64,000 nucleotides of DNA from Nannocystaceae bacterium ST9 (GCA_048320885.1 JBLWFJ010000001.1:1349642-1413641), one strand, 5' to 3'. Shown: positions 11,192-36,542, counted from the first letter of the stretch. Notes: generated from the sequence alone by a model not told the origin. Program-made: numbers and translations.

Positions 11192-11199
11192 GGCGTTGA

Positions 11200-14068: not shown

Positions 14069-14187
14069 CGACGCAAATGTCCGAGTGGCGCCGTTCGTGC
14101 GGCTATCGCCGCGAGAACGGCCGTTCGCACCATGGCAGAGATGTCGCGGGAAGGGCGGGCGCGGGTCTGGGACACTGGGCCTCTACC

Positions 14188-15930: not shown

Positions 15931-15969
15931 TTTTTGATCGATCACCACTGCCCAAGGCACGGCCCTGCC

Positions 15970-18676: not shown

Positions 18677-19444
18677 GTGCCCTTCGCCCCTGCCCTGCTC
18701 GCCGCGACGCTCGCGGTGGTGTTCCTCGCCGCGCTGGTCCGCACGACCTGGGGCTTCGGTGACGCGGTCGTGGCGATCCCGCTGCTGAGCTTGCTGGTCA
18801 GCATGCAGGTCGCCTCGCCGATGCTGGTGATGGTCAGCATCGTGCTCTCGCTGCTGCTCTTGCGCCGAGGCATGAGCCTGCTCGACTTCGGCGTGATCGC
18901 CCGGCTCCTGCTCGGAGCGCTGGCCGGCATCCCGCTCGGGCTGCTCGTGCTGACCGACCTGCCCGAGTCGCTCGCGCGCAAGGGCCTGGGCGGCGTGCTG
19001 CTCGGGTTCGCGATCTGGTCGCTGATCCGCGCTCGCCGAGCGAAGCCCGCGCTCGCGCGCGAGCCCACGCCACCGCTCGCGCTGGCCAAGGCGCTCCCGC
19101 TCGACCTCGGGTTCGGCGTGCTGGTCGGCGCATGCAGTGCGGCCTTCGACATCTCCGGCCCGGTCTTGCTGATCCACGCGACCGCCCGGCGATGGACGCC
19201 CGAGCAGCTGCGCATGAACTTGCAGGCCGTGTTCCTGCCGCTCGGGTTGCTGACGATGACCGGCCACGCGCTCTCGGGCCTGTGGACGCGCGACGTGCTC
19301 CTGCTCGCGGCCTGGTGCCTGCCGGTGGTGATGCTCGCGCGAGTGTTCGGCGAGCGGCTGCGGGTCCGACTCGAAGGCCAGCGCGGGGTGGTCGTGCTCT
19401 ACCTGCTGATCTTCGCGCTCGGCGTGCTGATGCTCGCGGTCTGA
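18677..19444 (+). CDS. TSUP-family (TauE/SafE) anion exporter
   Basis: 255 aa, about 8 TM helices with the internal two-fold repeat typical of TauE/SafE. Confidence 0.75.
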   Translation: MPFAPALLAATLAVVFLAALVRTTWGFGDAVVAIPLLSLLVSMQVASPMLVMVSIVLSLLLLRRGMSLLDFGVIARLLLGALAGIPLGLLVLTDLPESLARKGLGGVLLGFAIWSLIRARRAKPALAREPTPPLALAKALPLDLGFGVLVGACSAAFDISGPVLLIHATARRWTPEQLRMNLQAVFLPLGLLTMTGHALSGLWTRDVLLLAAWCLPVVMLARVFGERLRVRLEGQRGVVVLYLLIFALGVLMLAV

Positions 19445-19545
19445 GCGGATCTTTATGCGTTCTTGATCCCCGCCGGCCCGCTTCCGCATGCCGGCCCGAC
19501 ACCGCGCCGCCCAGGCCCGACTACGCTGCGCGCCGGAGACCCTGG

Positions 19546-19688
19546 CCATGCCCGAACTCGAAGTCGTGCTCGAGCGCCTCGTCGGCGTGATCGTGCTCGT
19601 GATGCTCGTGACGCTCGCCCTGCTCGCGACCGTGTCGATCGTCTGGACCCTGGCCAGCGACGATCACGAGCAAGACCGGCTCGGGTGA
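19546..19688 (+). CDS. Possible 47-aa single-TM peptide upstream of the KdpD-type kinase
   Basis: Internal Met MPELEVVLERLVGVIVLVMLVTLALLATVSIVWTLASDDHEQDRLG, with GGAGA 8 nt upstream. Confidence 0.25.
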
Positions 19689-19704
19689 GCGAAGATGGTC
19701 GCGG

Positions 19705-20821
19705 CATGCCGACGCGCACCCCCGCTCGCGTTCCGCTCGTGCTCGAGTTCGTGCTCGCGTTGGTGGTCGTCGCCGCGGTCAGCCTGGTCGCGCTGCTGCT
19801 CGAGCCCTTCCTCGCGCAGACCGACCACGTGATGCTCTACCTGCTCGGGGTGATCGCGGTCGCGTTCCGAGCCCGGCGTGGCCCGGCCTTGCTCGCCGCG
19901 GTCGCGAGCGTGGCGGCCTTCGACTTCCTGTTCGTCGAGCCGCGCTTCACCTTCGCGATCAGCGACACCCGCTACCTGCTGACCTTCGCGGTCATGGCGA
20001 CGATCGGCGTGGTCGTGGTCTCGCTGGTCGCCGAGGTCCGCAAGCAGGAGCGCGTCGCGTTCGAGCGCGAGGTCGCGGTTCAGGGCGAGCGGCTGCGCTC
20101 GGCCTTGCTGGCCTCGGTCTCGCACGATCTTCGCACGCCGCTCGGGGCGATCCTCGGGGCCGTGACCACGCTCGAGCAAGATCGCGAGAAGCTCGATCCC
20201 GGCGTGCAGACCAGCTTGCTGGCCAGCATCCACGACCAGACCGAGCACCTCAACCGACTGCTGCGCAACCTGCTGGAGATGACCCGGCTCGAGGGCGGCG
20301 CGGTCGTGCTCGCGCGCGAGCTGGCGGCGATCGAGGAGCCGATCGGCACGGTGCTGGCCTCGCTGACCCACCGGATCGGCGATCGGCGGATCGAGGTCGA
20401 GCTCGACGCGGTCGAGGGGCCGCTCTTCGCGACCTTCGATCCGATCGCGGTCGAGCTCGTGCTCAGCAACCTGATCGAGAACGCGCTGCGCTACGGCGGC
20501 GATCCGATCGAGATTCGAGCGGCGCGCGAGGGCGATGCGATCGCCGTGCGCGTGCTCGACCGTGGGCCCGGGCTCGATGAACACACGCTCGCCCACGCGT
20601 TCGAGAAGTTTCAGCGCGGGCTGGTCGGCGAGCGCAAGGGCGGCCCGGGCTCGGGCGGCGCCGGGCTCGGGCTGGCGATCGTCCGCAGCCTGGTCGAGGC
20701 CAGCGGCGGGCGCGTGTGGGCCCGCAACCGCGACGACGGACGGGGAGCCGAATTCGGGTTCACGCTCCCGCGCGCCGAGCTGCCGATCTTGCCCGAGGGG
20801 CTCCCGGAGGACTCGCCATGA
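19705..20821 (+). CDS. kdpD: Sensor histidine kinase carrying only the KdpD-type C-terminal half (4-TM DUF4118-like region + HisKA + HATPase), no KdpD-N/Usp domains
   Basis: MPTRTPARVPLVLEFVLALVVVAAVSLVALLLEPFLAQTDHVMLYLLGVIAVAF... (KdpD membrane domain), then SHDLRTPL H-box and N/G boxes. The stop overlaps kdpE (ATGA). Confidence 0.75.
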
Positions 20822-21519
20822 CCGAGCTGCGCCCGACCATCCTGGTCGTCGAAGACGAGCCGCAGATGCGCCGCTTCCTGCGGGCGCTGATCGGCAGCCA
20901 CGGCTACGCGCTGGTCGAGGCCGAGACCGGCCGCGAGGCGCTCGCGCTGGCGGCCAGCCATCGCCCCGATCTGATCGTGCTCGACCTCGGCCTGCCCGAC
21001 GTCGACGGGCTCGAGCTGGTCGGCAACCTGCGCGGCTGGACGCAGACGCCGATCATCGTGGTCTCGGCGCGCGGGCAAGAGCAAGACAAGGTCCGCGCGC
21101 TCGATCTCGGCGCCGACGACTACCTGACCAAGCCGTTCGGATCGCACGAGCTGCTCGCCCGGATCCGCGTGGCCCTGCGCCACGCCGCCCACGTCGGCGA
21201 GCAGGACGGCCCGGTGTTTCGCTCGCACGGCCTGATGGTCGACCTCGCGGCCCGCCGAGTCGCGCGCGGCGACGACGAGGTCCACCTGACCCCGCTCGAG
21301 TACAAGCTGCTGACCACGATGATCGAGCACGCCGGCAAGGTGCTCACGCATCGCCAGCTGCTCGAGCGCGTGTGGGGGCCCGCGCACGCCGACGACACCC
21401 AATACCTGCGCGTCTACATGGCCCAGCTGCGCCGCAAGATCGAGGCCGATCCGGCCCGGCCGCGGCTGCTCAAGACCGAGACCGGCGTCGGCTATCGGCT
21501 CGAGGTCGACGAGGGTTGA
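20818..21519 (+). CDS. kdpE: OmpR-family response regulator KdpE
   Basis: ILVVEDEPQMRRFL, DLIVLDLGLPDVDG, winged-helix C-terminus (LTPLEYKLLTTMIEHAGKVLTHRQLLERVWG). Confidence 0.85.
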   Translation: MTELRPTILVVEDEPQMRRFLRALIGSHGYALVEAETGREALALAASHRPDLIVLDLGLPDVDGLELVGNLRGWTQTPIIVVSARGQEQDKVRALDLGADDYLTKPFGSHELLARIRVALRHAAHVGEQDGPVFRSHGLMVDLAARRVARGDDEVHLTPLEYKLLTTMIEHAGKVLTHRQLLERVWGPAHADDTQYLRVYMAQLRRKIEADPARPRLLKTETGVGYRLEVDEG

Positions 21520-21649
21520 GGCTTGCAACTCGCACGATCGCGATCACTGGGGCTCGCGATTCGCAGGGCCTCGCGAACCCGCATCGGCGCGAGACCCAGA
21601 CCCAGCCAGCCGAGCCGCGCTGGCACGAGCGATGCACGGCGAGCGGGGC

Positions 21650-21754
21650 ATGCAGATCCTCGTGTTTCTCGCCATCGGCTGGGTCGCCTACGCGGCTTGC
21701 CTGGCCATCCTGCCCGCGATCGATCGCGTCGTTCATGAAGGAGTCGGGCGATGA
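21650..21754 (+). CDS. 34-aa hydrophobic sORF overlapping the kdpF start (ATGA)
   Basis: MQILVFLAIGWVAYAACLAILPAIDRVVHEGVGR, with a weak GGGG SD. Possible leader or accessory peptide; not in the ORF track. Confidence 0.25.
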   Translation: MQILVFLAIGWVAYAACLAILPAIDRVVHEGVGR

Positions 21755-21831
21755 CCTGGATCTCCGCCGTGTGTGCCGGGCTGGCGTTCGGCTACCTGCT
21801 CTTCGCGATCTTGCGGCCCGAACGATTCTGA
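21751..21831 (+). CDS. kdpF: K+-transporting ATPase subunit F (26 aa)
   Basis: MTWISAVCAGLAFGYLLFAILRPERF matches the KdpF consensus (...GYLVYALL.PE.F). Not in the ORF track. Confidence 0.7.
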   Translation: MTWISAVCAGLAFGYLLFAILRPERF

Positions 21832-21844
21832 ACCGGAGACCACC

Positions 21845-23515
21845 GTGCACGACCTCGTCTACGCCTTCGCGCTGCTCGCCGCAGCGCTCGCGCTGTCCTG
21901 GCCGCTCGGGCGAGCCATGGCCGCCATCGCCCAACCTCCACGCAGCCAGCCCGACCGGCTCGATCGCGCGATCGTCCGGGTGCTCGGACCGGCCGCGATC
22001 GCCGAGCAGACCTGGAAGAGCTACGCGCTCGCGCTGCTCGGGTTCAACGCGCTGATGTTCACGATCACCTACGCGATCTTGATCTTGCAGGGCTCGCTGC
22101 CGCTCAACCCGGCCGGCAAACCCGGGCTCGAGCCCTCGCTGGCGTTCAACACCGCGATGTCGTTCGCGACCAACACCAACTTGCAGCACTACTCCGGCGA
22201 GGTCGCGCTGTCCTACTTCTCGCAGCTGTTCGGGCTGACCTGGCTGCAGTTCGTGTCGGCCGCGACCGGCATCGCGGCGTTGGCCGCCATCGCGCGAATG
22301 CTCGGTCCGAGCGGCGCCGTCGGCAACTATGCCCGCGATCTGATCCGCTTCACCCTGCTGATCCTGCTGCCGCTCGCGCTGGTCGTCGGCGCCACGCTGA
22401 TCGTCGCCGGCACACCGATGACCTTCGCCGGGCCGGTCGAGCTGACCACGCTCGAGGGCGACTCGCAGACGATCGCTCGCGGACCGGTCGCGGCGATGGT
22501 CGCGATCAAGCAGCTCGGGACCAACGGCGGCGGCTACTTCGGCCCCAACAGCACGCACCCGCTCGAGAGCCCGAGCTTCTTCACCTGCTCGCTCGAGAAC
22601 CTGTCGATCCTCGTGGTCTCGATGGCCTGCCTGTGGATGTTCGGCCGACTGATCGGGCGGATGCGCGACGCCTGGCTGCTCTTCGCGGTCATGGCCGCGC
22701 TCTTCGTGGCCATGGTGATCCCGGCCGTGCTGCTCGAGGCCCAGCCCAACCCCGGCCTCGCCGATCTGCCGATCGTCGAAGCCCGCGGCAACCTCGAGGG
22801 CAAGGAGCTGCGCTTCGGCAGCGCGGCCGGCCCGGTCTGGGCGGTGACGACGACCGCGACCAGCAACGGCTCGGTCGCGGCCATGCACGACAGCCTCAAC
22901 CCGCTGACCGGGCTGCTGCCGATGATCGGCATGTGGCTCAACGTCAGCTACGGCGGCGTCGGGGTCGGGCTGATCGGCATGCTGCTCTACGTGGTCGTCG
23001 CGGTGTTCATCGCCGGGCTGATGGTCGGGCGCACGCCCGAGTATCTCGGGCGCAAGGTCGAGGTCCGCGAGATGAAGCTGGCCGCGCTGGCCTTGCTGCT
23101 GCATCCCTTGCTGATCCTCGGTGGCACCGCATTGTTCGTGGCCACGCCCCTCGGGACCGAGACCATGTCCAACCCGGGCAGCCACGGGTTCTCGCAGGTG
23201 CTCTACGAGATGAGCTCGGCCGCGGCCAACAACGGCTCGGGCTTCGAGGGCCTGGCCGACAACACCACGCCCTGGAACCTGATCACCGGGCTGTGGATGT
23301 TCCTCGGTCGCTACCTGCCGATCGTGCTGCCGCTTTCGATCGCGGCCTCGCTCGCCCGCAAGCAACGCGTACCCGAGAGCGCCGGCACGCTGCGAACCGA
23401 CTCGCCGACCTTCGCGCTGGTCCTGCTCGGCTGCGTGGTCCTGCTCGGCGCGCTGCTCTTTCTTCCCGCCGCCGTGCTCGGCCCGATCGCCGAACACCTG
23501 GAGATGACCCGATGA
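21845..23515 (+). CDS. kdpA: Potassium-transporting ATPase subunit A
   Basis: GTG start 14 nt after kdpF ([18 protein letters not shown]...). 557 aa with KdpA selectivity-filter-like repeats. Confidence 0.85.
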
Positions 23516-25572
23516 ACGAACCCATCACGCGGCGAGCGAAGACTCGCTCGTTGGTCACGCCCGAGCTGGCCCGCGCCGCGCTGCGCGAGTCGGTGATCAT
23601 GCTCGACCCCCGACGAATGGCCCGCAACCCGGTGATGTTCGTGACCGAGGTCGGGGCCCTGCTGAGCACGATCGCGGCCGCGCTCGCGCTCGGCTCGGGC
23701 GACGCCGGCTTCCCGATCACGATCTCGATCGTGCTGTGGCTGACGGTGCTGTTCGCCAACTTCGCCGAGGCGCTGGCCGAGGCGCGCGGCAAGGCGCAGA
23801 CCCAGGCGCTGCGAGCCACTCGCACGCAGACCGAGGCTCGTCGGCGGCGCGACGACGGCACGATCGAGTCGGTCGGGTCGACCGAGCTGCGCAAGGGCGA
23901 CGTGATCGTCGTCGCGCTCGGCGAGCTGATCGCCGCCGACGGCGAGATCATCGAGGGCGTGGCCAGCATCGACGAGTCGGCGATCACCGGCGAGTCGGCG
24001 CCGGTCGTGCGCGAGGCCGGAGGTGATCGCTCGGGCGTGACCGGAGGCACCCGCGTGCTCTCGGACTCGATCGTCGTGCAGGTCACCGCCGCGCCCGGCG
24101 ACTCGTTCCTCGATCGAATGATCGCGCTGGTCGAGGGCGCGCAGCGGCAAAAGACGCCCAACGAGATCGCCCTGACCGTCACGCTCGCCGGGCTCACGCT
24201 GGCGTTCTTGCTGGTCACGGTCTCGCTGGTCCCGATGGCCGCCTACTTCGACGCGACCATCGACATCCCGACCGCGGTCTCCCTGCTGGTCTGCCTGATC
24301 CCGACCACGATCGGCGGGCTGCTGGCGGCGATCGGGCTGGCCGGCATGGATCGGGCGTTGGCCGCCAACGTGCTGGCCAAGTCGGGCAAGGCGGTCGAGC
24401 TGGCCGGCGACATCGACACGGTCCTGCTCGACAAGACCGGCACGATCACCCGCGGTAACCGGCAAGCCACGCATCTGTATGCGGCCGGGACCTTCGAGGA
24501 GCGCGAGCTGGCCGAGGCCGCCATGTTGGCCTCGCTCGCCGACACGACCCCGGAGGGCCGCTCGATCGTCGGGCTCGGCGAGGGCCTGCTCGGGCGGCGG
24601 CCGAGCGAGCCGCTCGGGGCCAAGCCGATCAGCTTCTCGGCCCAGACCCGGCTCAGCGGGATCGACCTCGCCGAGGGCACGAGCATCCGCAAGGGCTCGG
24701 TCGACGCGATCGCCAAGTGGTTGATCGAGCATGGCAGCTCGCTGCCCGACGCGGTCCGCACGATGACCGAGGCGATCGGCCGCGAGGGCGCGACCCCGCT
24801 GGTCGTCGTGAGGGCGCGACCCGGCCAGGCCGCGCACACGCTCGGCGTGGTCCAGCTGACCGACGTGCTCAAGCCCGGGATCGCGGCTCGGCTCGCCCGC
24901 CTGCGCGCGATGGGCCTGCGCGTGGTCATGGTCACCGGCGACAACCCGCTGACCGCCAAGGCGATCGCCGGCAAGGCCGGGGTCGACGACTTCATCGCCG
25001 AGGCCACGCCCGAGGACAAGCTGGCCTACATCCGCCGCGAGCAGGCCGAGGGCCGGCTGATCGCGATGATGGGCGACGGGACCAACGACGCGCCCGCGCT
25101 CGCCCAGGCCGACATCGGCGTGGCCATGAACTCGGGCACCCAGGCGGCCAAGGAGGCCGGCAACATGGTCGATCTCGACAGCGATCCGACCAAGCTGATC
25201 GAGGTGGTCGAGATCGGCAAGCAGCTGTTGATGACCCGCGGCGCGCTGACGACCTTCTCGATCGCCAACGACGTCGCCAAGTACTTCGCGATCGTGCCGG
25301 CGCTCTTCGTCGCCGCGCTGCCGCAGCTGGCCGCGCTCGACGTGATGGCCCTCGGCTCGCCGCGCAGCGCGATCTTGTCGGCGGTGCTCTTCAACGCCAT
25401 CGTGATCCCGCTGCTGGTGCCGATCGCCCTGCGGGGCGTTCGCTACCGGCCCGAGGGCGCCGACAAGCTGCTGCGCCGCAACTTGCTGATCTACGGGCTC
25501 GGCGGGGTCGCGGCGCCCTTCGTCGGGATCAAGCTCTTCGACCTCGCGCTCGCGCTGATCGGGATGCCATGA
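23512..25572 (+). CDS. kdpB: Potassium-transporting P-type ATPase subunit B
   Basis: DKTGTIT phosphorylation motif, [20 protein letters not shown]. Start overlaps the kdpA stop (ATGA). Confidence 0.9.
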
Positions 25573-26153
25573 CCAGCTTCACGTCCACGCTTCGAATCCT
25601 CTCGGGTCTCACGCTCGGCACGCTCGCGCTGGTCGGCGCCTACGCGCTGATCTTGCTCGGCGTCGGGCTCGGCCTCGCGCCGGCGGCCGCCGAGGGCTCG
25701 CTGATCCGCGGGCCCGAAGGCGAGCTCGTCGGCAGTCGCCTGGTCGGCCAGTCGTTCACCGAGCCCGGCTACCTGTGGCCGCGGCCCTCGGCGGTCGACC
25801 ACGCCGCGGACGCGGCCGGCGGCAGCAACCTCGCGGCCAGCAACCCGGCCCTGCGCGAGCGAGTGCTCGCCGACCTCGCTCGCCATGCGGCCAGCGACGA
25901 GCGACCGATCCCCGCCGATCTCGTGACCGCGTCGGGCTCGGGCCTCGACCCCGACATCACGCTGGCCGGCGCGCTCTACCAGGCCCCGCGGATCGCCGCC
26001 GCACGCCGGGTCGATCGCCACGAGATCGAAGAGCGGCTGCGCTCGCTCGCCCACACGCCCAACCCCTGGTCGCCGCCGCTGATCAACGTGCTCGAGACCA
26101 ACCTCGAGCTCGATCGCACCTTCGGCGCGCTCCCGACGAGGCCGGCGGAATGA
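25569..26153 (+). CDS. kdpC: Potassium-transporting ATPase subunit C
   Basis: 194 aa, N-terminal [12 protein letters not shown] motif. ATGA overlaps on both sides. Confidence 0.85.
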
Positions 26154-27292
26154 GCCCGACGGATCGCGCCGAGGACTTCCTCGCGCTGGTTCGTCGGGCT
26201 CGCCAAGGTCGGCTCAAGCTCTTCCTCGGGCCCGCGCCCGGCGTCGGCAAGACCTACCGGATGCTGCAAGAGGCCCAGCAACTGAGCGCGACCGGGGTCG
26301 ACGTGGTCATCGGCGTGATCGAGACCCACGGACGACCCGAGACCGCGGCGCTGATCGAGGGGCTCGAGCAGGTGCCGATGCGGCGGATCGAGTATCGCGG
26401 GGTCGGCCTCGACGAGCTCGACCTCGACGGCGTCCTCGCCCGCGCGCCCGAGATCGCGCTGATCGACGAGCTCGCGCACACCAACGCGCCCGGCAGCCGC
26501 AACCGCAAGCGTCACCAGGACGTGCTCGATCTGCTCGAGGCCGGGATCCACGTGTTCGCCACGCTCAACGTCCAACACCTCGAGAGCCTCAACGACCTGG
26601 TCTCGCGCAGGGTCGGCGTGCAGGTCCGCGAGACCGTGCCCGACGTGTTCCTGCGCCGCGCCGATCAGATCGTCAACATCGATCTGCCGGCCGAGGATCT
26701 GCTCACCCGCCTGCGCGCGGGTCGGATCTATCCGCTCGAGCGGGTCGAGCGGGCGCTCGCCAACTTCTTTCAGGCCGGCAAGCTCGAGAGCCTGCGCGAG
26801 CTGGCCTTGCGCGAGGTCGCCGAGTCGATCGAGCGGGCCCAGCAGCGCGAGCGCGAGGTCAGCGGAGAGCGTGTGGGCCGAGTCGCGCTCAGTCGGCTGA
26901 TGGTCGGGCTCTCGAGCTCGCCGAACGCCGCGGCGCTGCTGCGTCGCGCGTCGCGACTGGCCGGTCGACTCAACGCGCATTGGTTCGCGGTCCATGTCCA
27001 GACCCGACGCGACGCGCCCGATCGGATCAGCGCGACCGACCAGCGCCGCCTGTTCGAGGCCCAACAGCTGGCGGTCGACCTCGGCGCGGAGGTCCAGGAG
27101 CTCGAGAGCGACGACGTGATCGCGGCGCTGATCGACTTCGCCAGCGCGCATGGGGTCTCGGACATCGTGATCGGGGCTCCGCCGCCGACCCACCCGATCC
27201 TGGCGTGGTTCACCCGCAGCGTCGCCCGGCGAATGCTCGACCACGCCAACCGCTTCAACCTCCACGTGCTGGCCACGGAGGTCTCGCCATGA
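26150..27292 (+). CDS. kdpD: Stand-alone KdpD N-terminal sensor domain + Usp domain protein (no TM or kinase domains)
   Basis: RGRLKLFLGPAPGVGKTYRMLQEAQQLSATGVDVVIGVIETHGRPETAALIEGLE... matches KdpD-N (PF02702) closely, then a Usp-like domain. Ends 380 aa in, with ATGA overlap into the next kinase gene. Confidence 0.8.
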   Translation: MSPTDRAEDFLALVRRARQGRLKLFLGPAPGVGKTYRMLQEAQQLSATGVDVVIGVIETHGRPETAALIEGLEQVPMRRIEYRGVGLDELDLDGVLARAPEIALIDELAHTNAPGSRNRKRHQDVLDLLEAGIHVFATLNVQHLESLNDLVSRRVGVQVRETVPDVFLRRADQIVNIDLPAEDLLTRLRAGRIYPLERVERALANFFQAGKLESLRELALREVAESIERAQQREREVSGERVGRVALSRLMVGLSSSPNAAALLRRASRLAGRLNAHWFAVHVQTRRDAPDRISATDQRRLFEAQQLAVDLGAEVQELESDDVIAALIDFASAHGVSDIVIGAPPPTHPILAWFTRSVARRMLDHANRFNLHVLATEVSP

Positions 27293-29109
27293 CGCTGCGG
27301 ATCAAGCTCTTGCTCGCCCAGCTGCCCATGCTGCTGGCGACCGCGCTGACGATCGCGGTCGCGATGCTGGCCGCGCGTCGCTTGGGCGGCGAGCCGGACG
27401 CGATCATCGAGGAGAACTTTCGCAGCTTCGATGCCGCACGCGCGATGCTCACCGCGCTCGAGCGGATCGACGCCGAGCTGACCCGCGGCGCGCTGGTCGG
27501 TGAGCCGCCCGATCCCGCGAGCGTCGACGCGGCGGTGGCCGAGTTCGAGGCGCCGCTGGCGATTCAGCGGGACAACGTCACCGAGCCCGGCGAGCACGAG
27601 GCGACCGCCGAGCTGGTCGCGGCTTGGCAGCGCTACCGAGCCGAGCTGCCGCTCGAGCCCGGCGCGAGCCTCGAGGATCACCGCGCCCGCTCCGACCAGC
27701 TGCGCGATCGAATCGAGGTGATCTTCGCGATCAACCGCGCTGGCATGCGCAGCAAGGCGGACGCGGCTCGCGTCGAAGCTCGCCGCGAGACGATCGTGAT
27801 CGCGGCGACCGGACTGATCGCGCTGGCCGTCGCGCTGCCCTTCGGCGTCGTCCTGGTCCGTCGACTGCTGCGCCCGGTCAAGGTCATGGCCGCGACCGTG
27901 GCCCGGCTCGCCAGCGGCGACTTCGACGTCCGAGTTCGGCTCGAGGGTCGCGGCGACGACGAGGTCCATCGCTTGGCGCTCGCGTTCAACGAGATGGCCG
28001 AGCGGCTCGGGGCCTATCGCGCCAGCTCGCTCGGTGATCTGCTCGAGGCCAACCTGCGCATGCAGTCGGTCGTCGACAGCCTGCCCGAGGCCGTGCTGGT
28101 CTGCGACACCGCCGGGGTCGTGGTTCAGGCCAATGTTTCGGCGCATCGGCTCTTCGGTGAGCCGACCAGCCTCGCGCGCCTGCCCAGCTCGATCGCCGGC
28201 CCGGTCCGCGCGGTGTTCGATCGCGTGGTCCGAACCGAGCGGGCCAGCGAGTGGGCCGGGATCGCCGACGCGCTGGCCTTCCCGCGCGGGACCGAGGTCG
28301 TGTGGCTGGCCGTCGGCGCGACCCCGGTGCTGCGTGACCAACGGTTGGCCGCGGTCACGCTCGCGCTGCGCGACGTCAGCCAGGCCCGTCGACTCGAGGG
28401 CTTTCGCGGCGACCTGGTCTCGGCCGCCGCCCACGAGCTGCGGACCCCGCTGACCTCGCTGCACATGGCCGTGCATCTGTGCCTGGAGGAGGCCGCCGGC
28501 CCACTCGACGATCGCCAGAAGGATCTGCTGACGGCCGCGCGCTCCGACTGCGAGCGCCTGCAGTCGGTCGTCGACGAGCTCCTCGATCTCGCGCGGGCCG
28601 AGGCCGGCACGATCCGGCTCGAGCTGCGCCCGCTGGTCGTGCAGTCGGTCCTGCACGAGGCGCTCGCCCGCCACGAGCTCGACGCCGAGCGCCAGGGCGT
28701 CACGATCGTCGTGGTCACGCCCGAGGCCGGCCTGCGCGTGCTCGCCGATCGCTCGAGGCTCGCGCAGGTGTTCGACAACCTGATCACCAACGCGCTGCTG
28801 CACGCCGCGGGCGTCCGGCGGATCGAGCTGGGCGCCGAGCAGGTCGGCGAGCGAGTCCACTTCCGGGTCGACGACGACGGCCCCGGCATCCCGCTCGAGC
28901 TTCGGCCCCGCGTGTTCGACAAGTTCGTGCGCGGACCCGCGACCGAGGCCGAGGGCACCGGGCTCGGGCTCAGCATCGTTCGCGATCTCGTGCGAGCGCA
29001 TCGCGGCGAGGTCGGGGTCGACGACGCGGCGATCGGCGGCGCGCGAGTGTGGTTCGAGCTGCCGACCGCCGCGGACGGCGGACCGATCCACGACATGCTC
29101 GCGCCGTGA
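27289..29109 (+). CDS. Sensor histidine kinase (TM sensor, HAMP, PAS, HisKA, HATPase) coupled to kdpD-N
   Basis: 606 aa, N-terminal TM-flanked sensor domain, then AAAHELRTPLTSL H-box, N/G boxes. Confidence 0.8.
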   Translation: MTLRIKLLLAQLPMLLATALTIAVAMLAARRLGGEPDAIIEENFRSFDAARAMLTALERIDAELTRGALVGEPPDPASVDAAVAEFEAPLAIQRDNVTEPGEHEATAELVAAWQRYRAELPLEPGASLEDHRARSDQLRDRIEVIFAINRAGMRSKADAARVEARRETIVIAATGLIALAVALPFGVVLVRRLLRPVKVMAATVARLASGDFDVRVRLEGRGDDEVHRLALAFNEMAERLGAYRASSLGDLLEANLRMQSVVDSLPEAVLVCDTAGVVVQANVSAHRLFGEPTSLARLPSSIAGPVRAVFDRVVRTERASEWAGIADALAFPRGTEVVWLAVGATPVLRDQRLAAVTLALRDVSQARRLEGFRGDLVSAAAHELRTPLTSLHMAVHLCLEEAAGPLDDRQKDLLTAARSDCERLQSVVDELLDLARAEAGTIRLELRPLVVQSVLHEALARHELDAERQGVTIVVVTPEAGLRVLADRSRLAQVFDNLITNALLHAAGVRRIELGAEQVGERVHFRVDDDGPGIPLELRPRVFDKFVRGPATEAEGTGLGLSIVRDLVRAHRGEVGVDDAAIGGARVWFELPTAADGGPIHDMLAP

Positions 29110-29164
29110 TCGTCCGGCCACGGATCCCTTTACGGCGTGCACCTCGCTCAGTAGCCTCGCCCGC

Positions 29165-30514
29165 GTGGACGAGCTCGAGCCGCCGCTGACCAAGACCCAT
29201 CGCGCCGCGCTGGCCATCCACGCCGAAAAACGCCCGGGTCGACTGAAGCTGCGCTTGGTCGACGGGCCGAGCGGGTCGACCGACTTCGAGCTGACCAAGC
29301 CGACGATTCAGGTCGGCCGAAGCCCGATGGCCGACCTCGTGATCGACGAGCGCTCGATCAGCAAGATCCACTTCGAGCTGCGCCTGGCCGGGGGCGGCGT
29401 CGACCTGCGCGACCGCGAGAGCACCAACGGTTGCTGGCTGCAGGGTTGTCGAGTCTTCCACGCGCGCTTGCGGGTCGGCGACTCGTTCCGCGCCGGCGAC
29501 CTCCAGTTCATGATCGTCGGCGTCGACGAGGTCGACGTCGTGGTCACCTTGGCCCCGCGCTGCGGCGCGCTGCAAGGCGCGAGCGTGGTGATGCGCGAGC
29601 TGTTCGCGTCGATCGACGCGCTCTCGCTCGCGCCGCTCGACATCCTGATCCTCGGCGAGACCGGCACCGGCAAGGAGCTGACCGCCCGCACGCTTCATCA
29701 GCTCTCCGAGCGCCGATCCAAGCCCTTCGTGACCCTCGACTGCGGCGCGATCTCGGCCTCGCTCGCCGAGGGCACGCTCTTCGGGTTTCGCAAGGGCGCG
29801 TTCACGGGCGCCGACCATGATCAGCCGGGCGTGTTCGAGGAGGCCAACCGCGGGACCATCTTCCTCGACGAGATCGGCGAGCTCGTGCCCGAGCTGCAAG
29901 TCAAGCTGCTGCGAGTGCTCGAGCGACGCGAGGTCACCCGCATCGGCGAGCCGGCCAAGCCGCGAGCGCTCGACATCCGGGTCGTCGCGGCCACGCATCG
30001 CGACTTGCGGCGCGAGGTGGCCGAGGGCCGCTTCCGCGAGGATCTGTTCTATCGCTTGGCCCGCGGCCTGATCACGCTCCCACCCCTGCGCGAGCGTGGC
30101 GAGGACATCCTCATGCTCGCCGACGATTTCCTGGGCAAGCTGCGCGACGAGTTCGGCCGCGACGTCCGAATGAGCGCCGCGTGCAGGGACGCGATGCTGC
30201 GGCATCCCTGGCCCGGCAACGTCCGCGAGCTGCGGAACTGCATCGAGCAGGCCTTCCACATCAAGCGCTCGGGCGAGCTCGCGGCGAGCGACCTGCGACT
30301 CGGCACCCTGGCGTGGAAGAGCCAAGGCACGTCCGAGCTGGCCGACGCGACCAAGACCTACGCCGACGCCCACGTCGCGCTGGACAAGGTGTTCTTGGCC
30401 AAGGTGCTCGAGAGCACGAGCGGCAACCTCTCGGAGGCGGCCCGCCGACTCGGCCTCAGCCGCGACACGCTGCGAGTCAAGCTGAAGGCCGCTCGGCTCT
30501 ACCCCGACGGCTGA
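29165..30514 (+). CDS. FHA-domain sigma-54-dependent transcriptional activator
   Basis: N-terminal FHA ([26 protein letters not shown]), GETGTGKE Walker A, GAFTGA motif, C-terminal HTH. GTG start. Confidence 0.85.
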
Positions 30515-31265
30515 GGGATTCTCGTCACCTGTCGCGCCGTCATGGTTCCGGCACGATCGTGAGCCAGACATCGACCGGTTCGTGCAACACGTCGACGCGC
30601 CAGACCCCCGAGTGCTCGAAGTCCACGATCGAGTAGTCGTCGACCAGCGTGAAGAACACCGGCTGGCGAACTCGCTCATCGAGGGCCTCTTGCTCGGTCG
30701 CTGGGTTTTCGGCCAGACAGCGCTCGTACCAGATCACCAGCCCCTCGGAGCGCTCCAGCCGGTAGGTCCCGGGCTCGGGCATGTCGATCAGGAAGCTCTG
30801 ATACATGTCCGTGGAGCCGTTGGCCTCGTTCTGATTGGTCTTCTCGTAGGGCCCGAGCGTGGCCTCGTCCTCACAGTCGAACTTCGCCTCGAACACCCAG
30901 CCACCTTCCGCTCGGGCCTCGAGCAGCAGCATGTCGGCGCACTGCCGATGTTGAATCCACATCGCCGGCGACTGGCTCGCGTAGTCCGTCGCCAGCGACG
31001 CTCCATACGCGGACTCCATGGCCGACCAGACGCCCTCGTCGTAGGTCGCGGTCCGGTAGAGCGCCGCAAATTCCTCCGGGCCCAATTGCTCGGCCAGCCA
31101 ACGCGTGAAGTGGCCTGCACGAGAATAGAAGGGGCCGAAGTCGCTCGAGTGGACCTCGGAAAACTCTCGCGGATCGGACAGCGATTCGTTGATCGAAGGC
31201 TCGAAGCTGACGGCGAGGCCCTCGGCCAAGATCGAGGGGGCACCGGTTCGAATCTCGCATGCGAC
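30514..31265. repeat. Segmental direct repeat, copy A (~750 bp)
   Basis: Near-identical to 31840-32590; identity ends at ...ggttcgaatc. Confidence 0.85.
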
Positions 31266-31673
31266 TCCGTGCGCGAGCTCGTGGTATGCGGTCCATGGCG
31301 TCGCGAACACGACCCCGTCGCGGCTGGTACATGCCGCCGCATCGGGGTTGGAGCAGTAGTCTTCGATGTCTTTGATCGCGTAGACCGGCACTCGCCTCTG
31401 AACGTCGATCCCGAGTTGGTCGGCCACGTACTGCACGTGGCGCTCGTAGTCGATCACCGACCCGGCACAGAGGAAGCGGTTTGGACCGATGTGGACATCG
31501 AGGTGCTCGGTCTCGTAGCTCACCGGGAGGTCCGGCACGTCCGAGACGATCTCCTCGAAGTCCAGACAAGTGAGCGGTCCCTCGGGCTCCGGGTCATGAG
31601 TCTCGTTGCATGCCAGGCTCAGCGCTCCCGCCAGTCCAAGGCTGACACGTCGGATGCAGTGGCGTTCGAGCAT
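30540..31673 (-). CDS. Lipoprotein with HExxH motif (putative zinc metallopeptidase-like)
   Basis: Internal Met MLERHCIRRVSLGLAGALSLAC (lipobox) and AYHELAHG. The 3' ~730 bp are duplicated at 31840-32590. Confidence 0.6.
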   Translation of the reverse strand: MLERHCIRRVSLGLAGALSLACNETHDPEPEGPLTCLDFEEIVSDVPDLPVSYETEHLDVHIGPNRFLCAGSVIDYERHVQYVADQLGIDVQRRVPVYAIKDIEDYCSNPDAAACTSRDGVVFATPWTAYHELAHGVACEIRTGAPSILAEGLAVSFEPSINESLSDPREFSEVHSSDFGPFYSRAGHFTRWLAEQLGPEEFAALYRTATYDEGVWSAMESAYGASLATDYASQSPAMWIQHRQCADMLLLEARAEGGWVFEAKFDCEDEATLGPYEKTNQNEANGSTDMYQSFLIDMPEPGTYRLERSEGLVIWYERCLAENPATEQEALDERVRQPVFFTLVDDYSIVDFEHSGVWRVDVLHEPVDVWLTIVPEP

Positions 31674-31839
31674 GACCGCTCCAGTAAAGCACGCCCTTCT
31701 GGGCATCCTCCATCGCCATCCTCACGTCGAACATGCTGCGAGTCGAGCTGAAGCCCGAGGGATTCTTGGTCGGAGGCTGACGAACGACTCGTCGACCTTC
31801 GTTGTTCGGACCAGATGCGCCGCGCGAGCGCCCGAGCGG

Positions 31840-32590
31840 CGAGGGATTTCTCGTCACCTGTCGTGCCGTCATGGTTCTGGCACGATCGTGAACCAGACAT
31901 CGACCGGCGGCCCATGTTCGTGCAACACGTCGACGCGCCAGACCCCCGAGTGCTCGAAGTCCACGATCGAGTAGTCGTCGACCAGCGTGAAGAACACCGG
32001 CTGGCGAACTCGCTCATCGAGGGCCTCTTGCTCGGTCGCTGGGTTTTCGGCCAGACAGCGCTCGTACCAGATCACCAGCCCCTCGGAGCGCTCCAGCCGG
32101 TAGGTCCCGGGCTCGGGCATGTCGATCAGGAAGCTCTGATACATGTCCGTGGAGCCGTTGGCCTCGTTCTGATTGGTCTTCTCGTAGGGCCCGAGCGTGG
32201 CCTCGTCCTCACAGTCGAACTTCGCCTCGAACACCCAGCCACCCTCCGCTCGGGGTTCGAGCAGCGGCATGTCGGCGCACTGCCGATGTTGAATCCACAT
32301 CGCCGGCGATTGGCTCGCGTAGTCCGTCGCCAGCGACGCTCCGTAGGCGGACTCCATCGCCGACCAGACCCCCTCGTCGTAGGTCGCGGTCCGGTAGAGC
32401 GCCGCAAACTCCTCCGGGCCCAATTGCTCGGCCAGCCAACGCGTGAAGTGGCCTGCGCGATCGTAGTAGGGGCTGAATTCGTCCAAATGGACCTCGGAAA
32501 ACTCTCGAGGATCGGACGGCCACTCGTTGATCGAGGGCTCGAAGCTGACGGCGAGGCCCTCCGTCAAGATCGAGGGCGCCCCGGTTCGAA
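31840..32590. repeat. Segmental direct repeat, copy B (~750 bp)
   Basis: Near-identical to 30514-31265. Confidence 0.85.
31869..32590 (-). pseudogene. 5'-truncated duplicate of the HExxH lipoprotein gene (no signal peptide or HExxH)
   Basis: ORF 31869..32771 is identical to gene 30540..31673 from IRTGAPSIL onward. Upstream of the breakpoint the frame reads the antisense of another gene (S/T-rich, atypical composition). Confidence 0.45.
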
Positions 32591-33135
32591 TCGAGCCCTT
32601 CGTGCCGCAGCCCGACCAAGCCTGCGACTCGACGCCCAACATCCCGCTGGTCGACGACGAATCGAGCACGCATGGCATCGCGGCCGCGGGCGCGGTCACG
32701 ATGTTCGGGCCCAACGATGACGCGGTCACCGAGCTCTCGAACATCAGCTTCGAGGTCCGCGAGGTGTTCAAGCGCGACGGCTCGATCGACGTCCACCTCG
32801 CGGGCTTCGACGCCGACGCCGACGAGGGCGGCTACGGCTCGCTCTCGTTCCTCGATCCGCACATCCACCTCGCCGCGCCGGTCAGCGCCCCGCTCGTCGC
32901 CGACACCGTCCGCTTCCCCGCGGGCTCGCTGCGCATGGAGGTCTCCGGCGTGGTCGTCTCGAACGGCGAGGTCGCGTTTGGGGGTCAGCGCTCGTCCGGC
33001 ATCTACGTCAACACCGGCACGGCCACGCTCGCCCGCACGCCGGACGGCGGCTTCGCGTTCGTGGACGCGCCCTTCGAAGCGGGCGGCTACCTGTTCGTGC
33101 TGAACACCGAGCAAGCGAGCGCGCAGGCCGAGTGA
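32590..33135 (+). pseudogene. 5'-truncated remnant of a secreted-protein gene
   Basis: Good coding composition from ...PDQACDSTPNIPLVDDESSTHGIAAAG... to stop 33133-33135, but no start codon; the frame is interrupted by repeat copy B. Confidence 0.4.
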
Positions 33136-33140
33136 GCGAC

Positions 33141-33177
33141 CGGAGACGTCGGCGGCGAGCTGCCGCCGACGTCTCCG
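33141..33177. terminator. Strong bidirectional terminator hairpin between convergent genes
   Basis: cggagacgtcggcggc-gagct-gccgccgacgtctccg, a perfect 16-bp stem. Confidence 0.55.
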
Positions 33178-33183
33178 CATCGA

Positions 33184-34521
33184 TCACTCGCCGGACTCGA
33201 AGCGCTTGAGCCGACGCCAGAGCGTCGAAGGGTTGATCCCGAGGATCTTCGCCGCCTGCTCGCGAGTCTCGCACTCGGCCAGTACGCCGAGGATGTGGCG
33301 CTGCTCGATCGCCGCGAGCGTGGTTCGACTGCCGAGCTCGGGCCCTCGCTCGACCCGGGCGCGCACGCGCTGCGAGAGCTGCTCGGCGGCGATGGTGGGT
33401 CCGCGCGCCAGGACCAGCGCGCGCTCCATCTCGTTGCGAAGCTCGCGGACGTTGCCCGGCCAGGCGTGGCCGCGCAGGGTCGCCTCGGCCTCGTGGCTCA
33501 GGCTCGGCGTCGGTCGATTCGCTCGCATCGCCGCGCGGGCCAGGAAGTGGCGGGCGAGCTCGGGAATGTCGGCCGCTCGCTCGCGCAGCGAAGGGACCTC
33601 GACCTCGATCACGTTGAGCCGGTAGAGCAGGTCGAGGCGCATGCGACCGGCGGCGACCTCGAGGTCGACGTCGCGGTTGGTCGCCGACACGATCCGCAGG
33701 TCGGCCCGCCGCGTCCGCGCCTCGCCGACCCGCTCGAACTCGAAGTCCTGGACGAAGCGCAGCAGCTTGGCCTGCGCGCCGCTGCCGATCTCGGCGATCT
33801 CGTCGAGGAACAAGGTCCCGCCCTCGGCCTCCTCGACGCGGCCGACCTGATCGCGGACCGCCCCGGTGAACGCCCCGCGGACATGACCGAAGAGCTCGCT
33901 GGTCAGCAGCTCGTCGCCGAGCGTCGGGCAGTTGATCGTGACCAGCGGACGCTCGGCTCGCGCGCTGCCGCGGTGAAGCAGGCGAGCGAGCACGCCCTTG
34001 CCGGTCCCGCTCTCGCCTCGCAGCAGCACGGGCGCGTCGCTGCTCGCGGCTTGCCGGATCGTATCGATCGCCGCCTGCATCGCGGCCGAGTGGGTGTGCA
34101 GCAGGACCTGGTCGGGATCGCCGGCCTCGGCTCGCCCGCCGACGTCGAGGACGTCGAGCTCGACGCGCGCTCGCTCGACGACCTCGCGGACCTGCGCCGG
34201 CGTGAAGGGCTTGGCCAGGTAGTCGCGCGCGCCTCGACGGATCGCCTCGACCGCGGTCGCGATGCTCGCGTAGGCCGTGATCAGCACGGCGTAGAGCTGC
34301 GGGTGATCGTGCACGAGCGAGGCGGTCAGCGCGATCCCGTCGTCGCAGCCGAGCCGGAGATCGACGAACGCGAGATCGAAGGCCTTGCTCTGCGCGGCCG
34401 CTTGCGCCTCGGCGGCACTGGCCGCGCGATGGACCGCGCAGCCGATCGCCTCAAGGCACATCCCGAGCGTCGCGCGAATGTTGGGCTCGTCGTCGACGAC
34501 CAGCACCCGAAGCCCGCTCAT
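33184..34521 (-). CDS. Sigma-54-dependent response regulator (NtrC family)
   Basis: Receiver domain (VLVVDDEPNIR...DLAFVDLRLG), GESGTGKG, GAFTGA, C-terminal HTH. Start overlaps the ptsN stop (ATGA). Confidence 0.85.
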   Translation of the reverse strand: MSGLRVLVVDDEPNIRATLGMCLEAIGCAVHRAASAAEAQAAAQSKAFDLAFVDLRLGCDDGIALTASLVHDHPQLYAVLITAYASIATAVEAIRRGARDYLAKPFTPAQVREVVERARVELDVLDVGGRAEAGDPDQVLLHTHSAAMQAAIDTIRQAASSDAPVLLRGESGTGKGVLARLLHRGSARAERPLVTINCPTLGDELLTSELFGHVRGAFTGAVRDQVGRVEEAEGGTLFLDEIAEIGSGAQAKLLRFVQDFEFERVGEARTRRADLRIVSATNRDVDLEVAAGRMRLDLLYRLNVIEVEVPSLRERAADIPELARHFLARAAMRANRPTPSLSHEAEATLRGHAWPGNVRELRNEMERALVLARGPTIAAEQLSQRVRARVERGPELGSRTTLAAIEQRHILGVLAECETREQAAKILGINPSTLWRRLKRFESGE

Positions 34522-34997
34522 GCCTCGCCTCGCAAGATCGCGAGCACTTCGCTCGCTCGCTCGGCCGCCGAGATCCGATCGATCGTGCTCGGATCGGCGA
34601 ACCAGCGGCTCACGCTCGCCAGCGCCCGCAGGTGCTCGCTGGGCTGCATCGACGAGACCAGCGCGACGAACACTCGGACCGGCCGATCGTCGGGGGCCCC
34701 GAACGCGATCCCCTGCGCCGCGATCCCGAGCACCGCTCGCGACCCGGTGATCTCGGCCTTGGTGTGCGGCAACGCCAGTCCGCGACCGATCGCCGTCGAG
34801 CCCAACGCCTCGCGCTCGCGCAGCCCGCTCGCGAGCTTCGCCGACGACAGCCCGGTCTGCTCGGCCAGCGCGAGCGCGAGCTCGCCGAGCACCTCGTCGG
34901 CCTCGCGTGCGCGCAGCGTCACGATCGCGGATTCGCCGGAGAGCAGGTCGTCGATCGGCACGCCGGCGATATAGCCAGGGTCGGGCCGCGAGGGCAT
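34518..34997 (-). CDS. ptsN: PTS EIIA(Ntr)-type nitrogen regulatory protein, copy 1
   Basis: LREREALGSTAIGRGLALPHTK (EIIA-Ntr His motif). Confidence 0.7.
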   Translation of the reverse strand: MPSRPDPGYIAGVPIDDLLSGESAIVTLRAREADEVLGELALALAEQTGLSSAKLASGLREREALGSTAIGRGLALPHTKAEITGSRAVLGIAAQGIAFGAPDDRPVRVFVALVSSMQPSEHLRALASVSRWFADPSTIDRISAAERASEVLAILRGEA

Positions 34998-35024
34998 CAA
35001 GAAGCCATAAAGAGGCGCGGCGGT

Positions 35025-35486
35025 TCAGGCCTCGCCGCGCAGGATCGCCAGCACGCTCGCCGGCTGCCCGGCGGCGGCGACGACTCGATCGATCACGCGC
35101 GGATCGACGAAGCTCCGGCCGACCGTCGCCAGCGCCCGCAGGTGCTCGTTGGGCTGGGTCGACGAGATCAACGCGACGAACACACGCACCGGCCGATCGT
35201 CGAGCGCCGCGAACGAGATCCCCTCGGGCGCGATGCCCAGCACGCCTCGCGATCCGCTGATCTCGGCGGCCTTGGCATGCGGCAGCGCGAGCCCGTGGCC
35301 GAGCCCGGTCGAGCCCAGCGCCTCGCGCTCGCGCAGCCCGGCTTCGATCGCGATCGCCGAGAGCCCGGTCTCACGGGCGAGCGCGAGAGCCAGCTCGGCG
35401 AGCACCTCGTCGGCGCTGCGGGCCGCGAGCATCACGATCGCGGACTCCCCGGACAGGATGTCGTCGAGCGGCACGGCCGAGCTCAC
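35025..35486 (-). CDS. ptsN: PTS EIIA(Ntr)-type protein, tandem paralog copy 2
   Basis: LREREALGSTGLGHGLALPHAK. GTG start overlaps the upstream stop (GTGA 35483-35486). The remainder of the listed ORF 35025..36845 is spurious. Confidence 0.6.
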   Translation of the reverse strand: MSSAVPLDDILSGESAIVMLAARSADEVLAELALALARETGLSAIAIEAGLREREALGSTGLGHGLALPHAKAAEISGSRGVLGIAPEGISFAALDDRPVRVFVALISSTQPNEHLRALATVGRSFVDPRVIDRVVAAAGQPASVLAILRGEA

Positions 35487-36295
35487 TTCTTTTTCTTCTT
35501 CGCCTTCTTCTTCTGGAATTTCTTGGCGTGCGCGACGTTGCGGTTGGCCTTCTCGATCACCCGGCCGTCTTGCTGCATGCGCTGCGGGGCCTCGCCGACC
35601 TCTTGGATCAGCTGGCCCTCGGCGAGCTGAAGCAGCTGGAGCTGGCTGGCGTAGGCGAAGGGCGAGAGCCCGAGCGCCATCCGGCGATCGAGCTGGGTCA
35701 GCGCGACCTGGGCCCGGATCGGGATGCGGATGTTGACGACCTGGACCTCGGCGTGGCGCTCGTGACGAGGATCGGCCAGCGCCTTGTCGCCGCGGGTGAA
35801 GTGCTGCCGGCAACACGAGGGCCGGACCTCCCAGATCCGACAGCGCCCCTTGGCCTGATCGAGGAAGGGGCAGGGCAGGCCGCGCTCGGCGAACTGCTTG
35901 CGACCGAGGCCGGCGGCCTTGCTGGTCATGCGGATCTTCTCGGGATCCTTGCCGGTGTGCAGCGCCTGGATGTCCTTGAACTGCTGCTCGCCGAGCTCGC
36001 CGAGCTTCTGAGCGACCTGCGGAAAGTCCTTCCAGGTTCGGATGGTCCGGTAGATCAGCAGCGACTCGGGGCCGCTGACGCCGAAGGGCCCGGCGAAGCA
36101 GGCACCCTTGCCCTCGGGGGTCCCGGCCGCCGCAGCGTCGTCGAGCCCGAGGCTGGCGCGGACCGACTCGATGTAGCGGTCGTGCGCGGCGTGAAAGGTT
36201 TCGACCTGCTCGAAGAACCCCTTGGGCAGACGCTTGAGCTTGCTGACGTCGGCGATCCCCGGCAGCCCGGCGAGCACGTCGACCGCCTTCTGCAT
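35483..36295 (-). CDS. YkgJ-family (CxxCxxCC zinc/iron-chelating domain) protein with C-terminal poly-lysine tail
   Basis: CPFLDQAKGRCRIWEVRPSCCRQHF matches PF03692-type motifs; C-terminus KKFQKKKAKKKKK. Start assigned at MQKAVD (ATG complement 36293-36295); it could lie further upstream. Confidence 0.5.
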   Translation of the reverse strand: MQKAVDVLAGLPGIADVSKLKRLPKGFFEQVETFHAAHDRYIESVRASLGLDDAAAAGTPEGKGACFAGPFGVSGPESLLIYRTIRTWKDFPQVAQKLGELGEQQFKDIQALHTGKDPEKIRMTSKAAGLGRKQFAERGLPCPFLDQAKGRCRIWEVRPSCCRQHFTRGDKALADPRHERHAEVQVVNIRIPIRAQVALTQLDRRMALGLSPFAYASQLQLLQLAEGQLIQEVGEAPQRMQQDGRVIEKANRNVAHAKKFQKKKAKKKKK

Positions 36296-36542
36296 GGCGG
36301 CGGTGTGCGGCTGGGCGGCCTTGCGTGCGGCACGAGGGATTCGCGTGACCCGGTCGCGCGGCAGCTTGATGCGCGAACCGAACAGGGCGGCGAGGAAGTC
36401 GAGCACGGCGGCTCGGCTTGTAGCAGGCGCCCGCGAGACCCGAAAGCAGCGCGGGCGAAGTGAGCGAAGGCCCCCGCGAGCCCGGTCGGGGACGGCTTGC
36501 GTGGTGTTGATACCGCCGGCTGCGCAAGTCATCCTCGCGGCC

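Follow-up and report, generated by a model that had tools for sequence, protein, structure and literature searches.

In Desulfovibrio vulgaris, the kdpFABC genes are controlled by a sigma-54 response regulator, DVU3334, and KdpD is split into DVU3336, which combines a K+ sensor with Usp, and DVU3335, a sensory-box kinase (PMC3333781; PMC4641369). Potassium has also been connected to PtsN, the EIIA(Ntr) protein of the phosphotransferase system (PTS), which binds KdpD and TrkA in Escherichia coli and KdpD in Pseudomonas putida and rhizobia (PMC13104625; PMC9239096; PMC3665714), and rhizobia carry a second ptsN gene, ptsN2, inside their kdpDE cluster (PMC13104625). Here we describe a locus of the myxobacterium Nannocystaceae bacterium ST9 (Myxococcota), contained in a 64,000-nt stretch of ~70% GC that we refer to as the window, in which a YkgJ-like gene, two genes for PtsN-like proteins (EIIA_1 and EIIA_2) and a gene for an NtrC-family sigma-54 response regulator (hereafter the regulator) succeed one another on the minus strand. 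While an earlier note on this DNA had read these four genes as a single unit bringing PTS input to the regulator independently of a kinase, we consider it probable that the two EIIA genes and the regulator gene make up the regulatory end of an island for potassium uptake, combining a sigma-54 Kdp circuit like that of DVU3334 with EIIA modulators like rhizobial PtsN2.

In the circuit that we propose, the regulator (33184-34521) would be the sigma-54 response regulator, i.e., the enhancer-binding protein, of the Kdp pump. A HAMP-PAS histidine kinase (27289-29109), probably together with a KdpD-N/Usp sensor, would phosphorylate the Asp in its receiver domain, and the phosphorylated regulator would activate a -24/-12 promoter located before kdpF (21621-21636). 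A KdpD-C kinase and KdpE (19706-21519) would provide a second, classical branch upstream of the same operon. As for the two EIIA proteins, their most likely targets would be the transmitter domains of either Kdp kinase or of both, with Trk as another possible partner. Such binding would depend on whether their conserved His is phosphorylated and would tune K+ uptake, a role that PtsN plays in E. coli and PtsN2 in rhizobia.

The content of the island, which was identified via Pfam and NCBIfam, includes on the plus strand kdpFABC (21751-26153), the genes of the high-affinity K+ pump, whose start codons and 4-nt overlaps were read directly. In this operon, kdpF (21751-21831) is followed by kdpA (21845-23515; Pfam KdpA, 713 bits), kdpB (23512-25572; Pfam E1-E2 ATPase) and kdpC (25569-26153; Pfam KdpC). 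The next gene (26150-27292, plus strand) encodes a non-kinase K+ sensor in which a KdpD-N domain (PF02702, 306 bits) is joined to Usp; its best NCBIfam model is NF038185, the KdpD-like non-kinase potassium sensor (349 bits for a cut-off of 550), and it also matches N-terminal KdpD. The last gene of the kdp operon (27289-29109, plus strand) encodes a histidine kinase of HAMP-PAS-HisKA-HATPase architecture according to Pfam. On the other side of the pump genes, and on the same strand, lie a KdpD-C-type kinase (19706-20821; DUF4118-HisKA-HATPase), which among NCBIfam models best fits C-terminal KdpD, and a KdpE-like regulator of the OmpR family (20818-21519), which scores 285 bits with the NCBIfam KdpE model, for a cut-off of 325. 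The earlier note had stated that no histidine kinase is adjacent to the regulator, which is correct for its immediate neighbors but overlooks the two kinases in the same island.

The regulator itself is a 445-aa protein exhibiting a receiver domain (PF00072), an AAA+ domain (PF00158, 202.6 bits) with its AAA_lid and a Fis-type HTH (HTH_8, PF02954). The receiver is canonical and complete, with DD10-11, D54 and K104, a GAFTGA motif could be read from the AAA+ sequence, and Pfam detected no PRD and no EIIA or EIIB domain. NCBI proteins of ST9 match the regulator and both EIIA proteins at 99-100%. There is no receiver-domain partner immediately beside the HAMP-PAS kinase, which is encoded 4 kb from the regulator. 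We propose this kinase as the cognate of the regulator because their orthologs are convergent or near one another in related loci (loci are given L numbers, and proteins P numbers, in what follows). In L115-L117, regulator orthologs (80% identity) are convergent with an ortholog of the HAMP-PAS kinase (78% identical), which comes after KdpD-N, KdpC, KdpB, KdpA and KdpF, while in L118/L119, from Enhygromyxa, the identities are 62% for the regulator and 49% for the kinase. A cluster composed of the regulator, kdpFABC, KdpD-N/Usp and a PAS kinase, which in ST9 corresponds to 21751-29109 plus 33184-34521, is therefore also found in L115-L119.

These contexts bear directly on an alternative in which a PTS(Ntr) relay consisting of EI, NPr and EIIA would feed into the regulator without a histidine kinase, with EIIA phosphorylating the receiver or AAA+ domain or controlling it stoichiometrically. 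In its favor, the stop codon of EIIA_2 and the ATG of the regulator share an ATGA overlap, the same order is found with a 4-nt overlap (GTGA) in L025, the two genes are divergent neighbors in L118/L119, and no kinase is immediately adjacent to the regulator in ST9. Such a relay nevertheless seems very unlikely to us, since the PTS is known to control sigma-54 activators through PRD-type domains and the regulator displays a canonical receiver in place of a PRD or EIIA/EIIB domain. Moreover, orthologs of the regulator are consistently found beside a HAMP-PAS kinase that has no receiver partner next to it, and in L115-L117 the regulator and kinase occur with no EIIA within 10 kb. Together with the lack of linkage between YkgJ and EIIA in 24 of 24 genomes detailed below, the canonical receiver and the kinase-linked orthologs speak against the earlier model of a four-gene unit receiving PTS input independently of a kinase, as does the wider setting of the genes in potassium uptake, which that note had not seen. 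A functional link between EIIA and the regulator is nevertheless plausible, considering that the EIIA-regulator order and 4-nt overlap recur in L025 and that the two genes are divergent neighbors in Enhygromyxa. The regulator ortholog of L025 (10441-11793) loses its frame after approximately residue 283, corresponding either to a pseudogene or to an assembly error.

In agreement with sigma-54 control of kdp, which we propose from gene order and motif conservation, a scan of the window with the pattern TGGCAC-N5-TTGCA returned a -24/-12 promoter-like element, TGGCACGAGCGATGCA (21621-21636, plus strand). This element has one mismatch to the consensus, such matches being expected ~0.45 times per window by chance, and lies in the intergenic region between KdpE and kdpF, 115 nt upstream of kdpF. 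The equivalent site carries TGGCATGACCGATGCA in L115 and TGGCACACACATTGCT in L118, two loci that have both the regulator and a full-length kinase. In L113, from a metagenomic relative, there is no -24/-12 motif upstream of kdpF (17245-17410), the regulator is absent and the HAMP-PAS protein (10448-11701) is truncated, without its HisKA/HATPase half, which looks like a correlated loss of the whole sigma-54 branch. A second element and candidate enhancer site, of the form TTGCAA-N-T-N-GCA, is located ~100 nt upstream of the motif in ST9 (TTGCAACTCGCA, ~21522-21533) and is shared with L115 and L118. The same intergenic region contains a conserved small ORF (21650-21754, plus strand) for a hydrophobic peptide of 34 aa (MQILVFLAIGWVAYAACLAILPAIDRVVHEGVGR), which overlaps the kdpF start by ATGA. 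Homologous small ORFs are present 5' of kdpF in L113, L115 and L118, and they might correspond to a Kdp-associated small membrane peptide that is perhaps undescribed.

The two EIIA proteins are stand-alone PTS_EIIA_2 modules in which PF00359 spans almost the full length: EIIA_1 (35025-35486, minus strand, GTG start, 153 aa) with 70.6 bits and EIIA_2 (34518-34997, minus strand, ATG start, 159 aa) with 84.3 bits. The best solved relatives of EIIA_2 are PtsN of Neisseria meningitidis and of E. coli (E ~5e-13), and the identity of the ST9 proteins to E. coli PtsN is about 30%. In the alignment, GRGLALPHTK in EIIA_2 corresponds to GNGIAIPHGK in E. coli PtsN, EIIA_1 has GHGLALPHAK, and the LPH histidine kept in both copies is thus aligned to the PH histidine of the GIAIPHG motif, which we take to be the phospho-acceptor His73. 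The earlier observation of two paralogs, each with an intact His, is confirmed. The proteins are 71% identical (78% for the DNA), with a ratio of nonsynonymous to synonymous substitution rates (dN/dS) of 0.47, and the possibility that one copy is a pseudogene was rejected since both ORFs are intact and have kept the His. The two copies are sisters in a neighbor-joining tree, and the tandem state appears specific to the ST9 lineage. Rhizobia offer precedents both for a PtsN paralog within a kdp cluster and for two PtsN copies per genome (PMC13104625; PMC3665714). NCBI lets EIIA_2 start at GTG 34961 (147 aa), which probably truncates it, since PGYIAGV, encoded before that codon, is common to the orthologs P0124 and P0126; this conservation supports the ATG at 34997 as the start of a 159-aa protein.

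The gene contexts of EIIA orthologs (58-74% identity to EIIA_2) argue for a role in K+ uptake. In L113 and L114, from the metagenomic relative, a single EIIA gene is convergent with the truncated HAMP-PAS protein, which itself follows KdpD-N, KdpC, KdpB, KdpA, KdpF, KdpE, the KdpD-C kinase and TauE. In L026/27, L109, L110-112 and L120, EIIA is convergent with a KdpE/KdpD-C pair (81-94% and 83-90% identical, respectively, to those of ST9). In L118/L119, EIIA is found between TrkHA and the divergent regulator ortholog, after which comes a full kdp cluster, while in L028 it is directly upstream of TrkH-TrkA. Linkage to kdp genes is thus seen in ST9, L113, L118/L119, L026, L109, L110 and L120, and either K+ uptake genes or the KdpD-C/KdpE pair are within ~5 kb of this EIIA clade in eight of nine independent contexts. 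As a background, we used 80 loci (745 kb) of distant EIIA homologs (≤47% identity) from a metagenome scan with EIIA_2 that returned no closer homologs, none of which contains kdpABC or KdpD-N and only one of which contains a KdpE-like gene.

The EIIA proteins might instead act post-translationally on transporters and not on kinases, either the TrkA-type gating subunits or KdpFABC, their link to sigma-54 being one of co-expression only. This is suggested by the position of EIIA directly upstream of TrkH-TrkA in L028, by its co-orientation in L119 with a TrkH gene that lies ~500 bp further downstream, and by the binding of E. coli PtsN to TrkA and YcgO (PMC13104625). We consider it doubtful, since the commonest neighbor of EIIA is the KdpD-C/KdpE pair with no transporter nearby (L026, L109, L110 and L120), and since no trk genes were found in the ST9 window. 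A bolder version of the preferred potassium circuit, which we regard as improbable, would have two parallel branches on one kdp operon, with KdpD-C/KdpE acting at sigma-70 and KdpD-N, the HAMP-PAS kinase and the regulator acting at sigma-54. There would be one EIIA per kinase, integrating the metabolic (PEP/PTS) state into both branches, and EIIA_2, which is translationally coupled to the regulator, would perhaps act on the sigma-54 activator itself.

A more conventional possibility is that these proteins are ordinary sugar-PTS components of the fructose or mannitol type and have nothing to do with K+. This would fit their NCBI name, 'PTS sugar transporter subunit IIA', and the matches of both proteins to fructose and mannitol EIIA models, which are below threshold. 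We find it scarcely credible, however, since neither the window nor any of the orthologous EIIA contexts contains an EIIB, EIIC, HPr or EI gene, PtsN ranks first among models as well as among solved relatives, and the K+ neighborhood is consistent. The window does contain a 900-aa protein (50259-52961, plus strand) with PPDK_N and the mobile His domain of PEP-utilizers, which lacks EI-type domains and is not a PTS enzyme I; it presumably resembles PEP-synthase or rifampicin-phosphotransferase-like enzymes.

In contrast to the EIIA and regulator genes, the YkgJ-like gene is probably a neighbor at the border of the island and not a part of the K+ system, judging from its own genomic contexts. 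In a scan using one genome per species, which gave 24 loci with 46-90% identity, neither EIIA nor the regulator was found beside YkgJ in any of the 24 species-representative genomes, within flanks of 3-8 kb. The four-gene order, whose conservation in relatives had been put forward as a check, is accordingly absent from these loci, and only parts of it are seen again, namely YkgJ with EIIA (L113/L114) and EIIA with the regulator (L025). YkgJ is conserved instead together with a divergently transcribed lipoprotein-like neighbor. An alternative would be that the four genes form one functional unit, in which the YkgJ-like protein, as a metal/cysteine protein, serves as sensor or partner. Consistent with this, YkgJ and EIIA_1 overlap by 4 nt with no terminator between them, YkgJ is followed by EIIA after 13 nt in L113/L114, where YkgJ has 86% identity and the same flanks, and a possible EIIA 5' remnant follows YkgJ in L001. 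The 24 genomes nevertheless make such a unit highly improbable, as does the Enhygromyxa assembly DATLLB01, in which YkgJ (L003) and the kdp, regulator and EIIA genes (L119) are on different contigs. Moreover, most EIIA orthologs have no YkgJ nearby, YkgJ is tied to the divergent lipoprotein, and 4-nt overlaps are routine in this genome. The YkgJ-like gene would thus be an unrelated conserved neighbor, and its co-transcription with EIIA_1 in ST9, although probable, would result merely from juxtaposition.

The YkgJ-like protein differs in several respects from its earlier description. Its gene (35483-36406, minus strand) has GTG 36406 as start codon and a product of 307 aa, in agreement with the NCBI call and with a 100% match to the ST9 protein P0001, and its N terminus, MLDFLAALFG, is kept in homologs of ~305-310 aa; the ATG at 36295 taken previously as its start is internal and 37 codons short. 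PF03692 matches with 29.8 bits, for a gathering score of 23, and only over profile positions 19-69 of 85. Rather than being CxxC-rich, the protein has five cysteines (103, 179, 189, 198 and 199), four of which are invariant in the family, without a single CxxC and without the eponymous CxxCxxCC motif; His150 is invariant and His202 nearly so. The C-terminal tail reported as poly-Lys, KKFQKKKAKKKKK, is indeed present. It is not uncommon, however, since a K/R-rich tail was found in 119 of the 119 near-full-length homologs checked (median 67% K/R over the last 15 residues), and we rejected the idea of a local oddity in favor of a family hallmark. This family (P0001-P0120) is always paired with the divergent lipoprotein-like gene and, judged by the source names seen, is apparently mostly confined to Nannocystaceae-type Myxococcota. 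The annotation of the locus is thus corrected for the starts of YkgJ and EIIA_2 as well as for the assumption that the regulator lacks a kinase.

All four minus-strand ORFs that had been described in a row do exist, and two of their three junctions overlap as claimed: GTGA (35483-35486) joins the YkgJ stop to the GTG start of EIIA_1, and ATGA (34518-34521) joins the EIIA_2 stop to the regulator, but EIIA_1 and EIIA_2 are separated by a 27-nt spacer. Such 4-nt overlaps are routine at this locus because the kdp genes are joined likewise, at kdpD-C/kdpE, kdpA/B, kdpB/C, kdpC/kdpD-N and kdpD-N/kinase. The GTGA overlap was rejected as a special feature since the YkgJ stop of L002 likewise reads AAGTGA without being followed by EIIA. 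Downstream, a stem-loop (33126-33192, minus strand; -56.4 kcal/mol, z-score of -8.5 relative to shuffles) with a perfect 16-bp core overlaps the stop codon of the regulator, at the meeting point of two convergent genes. This hairpin is not followed by a T-run and is a probable transcript end, predicted to be shared with the convergent ORF 32527-33135. Scans of 32900-36800 for consensus sigma-70 promoters and intrinsic terminators found no sites, such scans being uninformative at 70% GC.

The borders of the island were defined by comparison with L001 and L002, the two closest relatives, in which the 16-kb block (~19445-35486) between the TauE gene (18677-19444) and YkgJ is missing. In blastn alignments with the window, they are collinear from ~43525 to ~35436/35489, and collinearity resumes at ~19432/18664. 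Insertion of the island recently and in ST9 alone was rejected since L113 carries it at the same site. In L001, a possible 5' remnant of EIIA, VVLDDIVADESAI, directly follows the YkgJ stop, although this tblastn match is weak (8 of 14 residues identical, E = 0.02). The presence of the island at the same site in L113 and this remnant, the latter being weak evidence, point to loss in L001 and L002, and the island is accordingly an old module that has been variably retained. The whole K+-uptake module is a presence/absence polymorphism, full in ST9, reduced in L113 and absent in L001/L002.

Several observations weigh against the potassium circuit that we favor. In L025, EIIA and the regulator have no K+ genes within 10 kb. 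The gap between kinase and regulator in ST9 is made up of 4 kb of ST9-specific genes, among which an FHA-type sigma-54 activator without a receiver domain (29165-30514, plus strand), located directly 3' of the HAMP-PAS kinase, could equally use the kdpF promoter; of the kdp clusters compared, only that of ST9 has this activator, which is absent in L113, L115 and L118. The -24/-12 motif is not significant on its own, with at least two window hits in 11 of 100 shuffles, and the leader predicted from the ST9 motif to the small ORF at 21650 would be just ~3 nt. Both EIIA proteins are below the equivalog cut-off of TIGR01419, which is nonetheless their best model (68.3 and 66.1 bits for a cut-off of 138.7), as well as below that of the PtsN model NF008145 (55 and 59 bits for a cut-off of 221). 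Finally, phosphorylation of the EIIA proteins is predicted, and an EI(Ntr)/NPr relay would have to act upstream of them, while the search, which covered the window (64 kb of the 6.98-Mb ST9 genome) and 590 kb of relatives' loci, the latter by tblastn with E. coli HPr and NPr queries and with a regular expression for the EI active site, returned no HPr, NPr or EI.

Other features of the window include the rest of the ST9-specific interval, with a gene of no Pfam match (30540-31706, 388 aa) that is accompanied by a tandem copy (30540-32771 for the pair). A recent tandem duplication (30508-30877 and 31837-32215), consisting of 300 nt that are 100% identical and 71 nt at 89%, copies the 3' part of this 388-aa gene. 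The second copy (31869 to ~32590) is truncated at its 5' end and overlaps the convergent ORF 32527-33135. Outside the island, two tandem DUF2330 paralogs (14065-15930 and 15934-17682, plus strand) match each other's counterparts in blastn with L002.

How, then, does this locus compare with known systems? To our knowledge, the only well-established route by which PTS phosphorylation reaches a sigma-54 activator is that of the LevR/MtlR-type proteins, which combine PRD with EIIA/EIIB and are the nearest analog of the idea in the earlier note. The regulator of ST9 carries a receiver instead of PRD or EII domains, and their mechanism is not directly transferable. With E. coli PtsN, the ST9 EIIA proteins share the fold, the His motif and the theme of K+ homeostasis, but they are only ~30% identical to it and below the family cut-off; E. 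coli ptsN is presumably in the rpoN operon, apart from kdp or trk. As in DVU3334-DVU3339, ST9 has kdpFABC, a non-kinase KdpD-N/Usp protein, a PAS kinase and a GAFTGA-containing regulator of the NtrC type, and its -24/-12 motif is a candidate counterpart of the sigma-54 promoter upstream of kdpF (PMC3333781; PMC4641369). In contrast to that cluster, ST9 encodes its regulator on the opposite strand, at a distance of 4 kb, and has in addition a classical KdpD-C/KdpE pair and attached EIIA genes; the likeness to DVU3334 is one of gene architecture. As for rhizobial PtsN2, the resemblance is that a paralog of the EIIA(Ntr) type, standing alone and retaining its His, is encoded beside kdp regulatory genes, and that more than one copy per genome has been described (PMC13104625; PMC9239096; PMC3665714). 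The differences are that ST9 has two tandem copies, one of which is translationally coupled to a sigma-54 regulator, that its KdpD is split, and that its EIIA proteins are below the PtsN equivalog cut-off. The locus therefore combines known parts in a new way, without amounting to a new system or kind of mechanism. In one compact stretch, where they could be studied side by side, it joins a KdpD/KdpE branch of the classical kind to a sigma-54 branch resembling that of Desulfovibrio and to two EIIA paralogs, and through gene neighborhood it extends to Myxococcota the connection between PtsN and potassium that has so far been studied in Proteobacteria.

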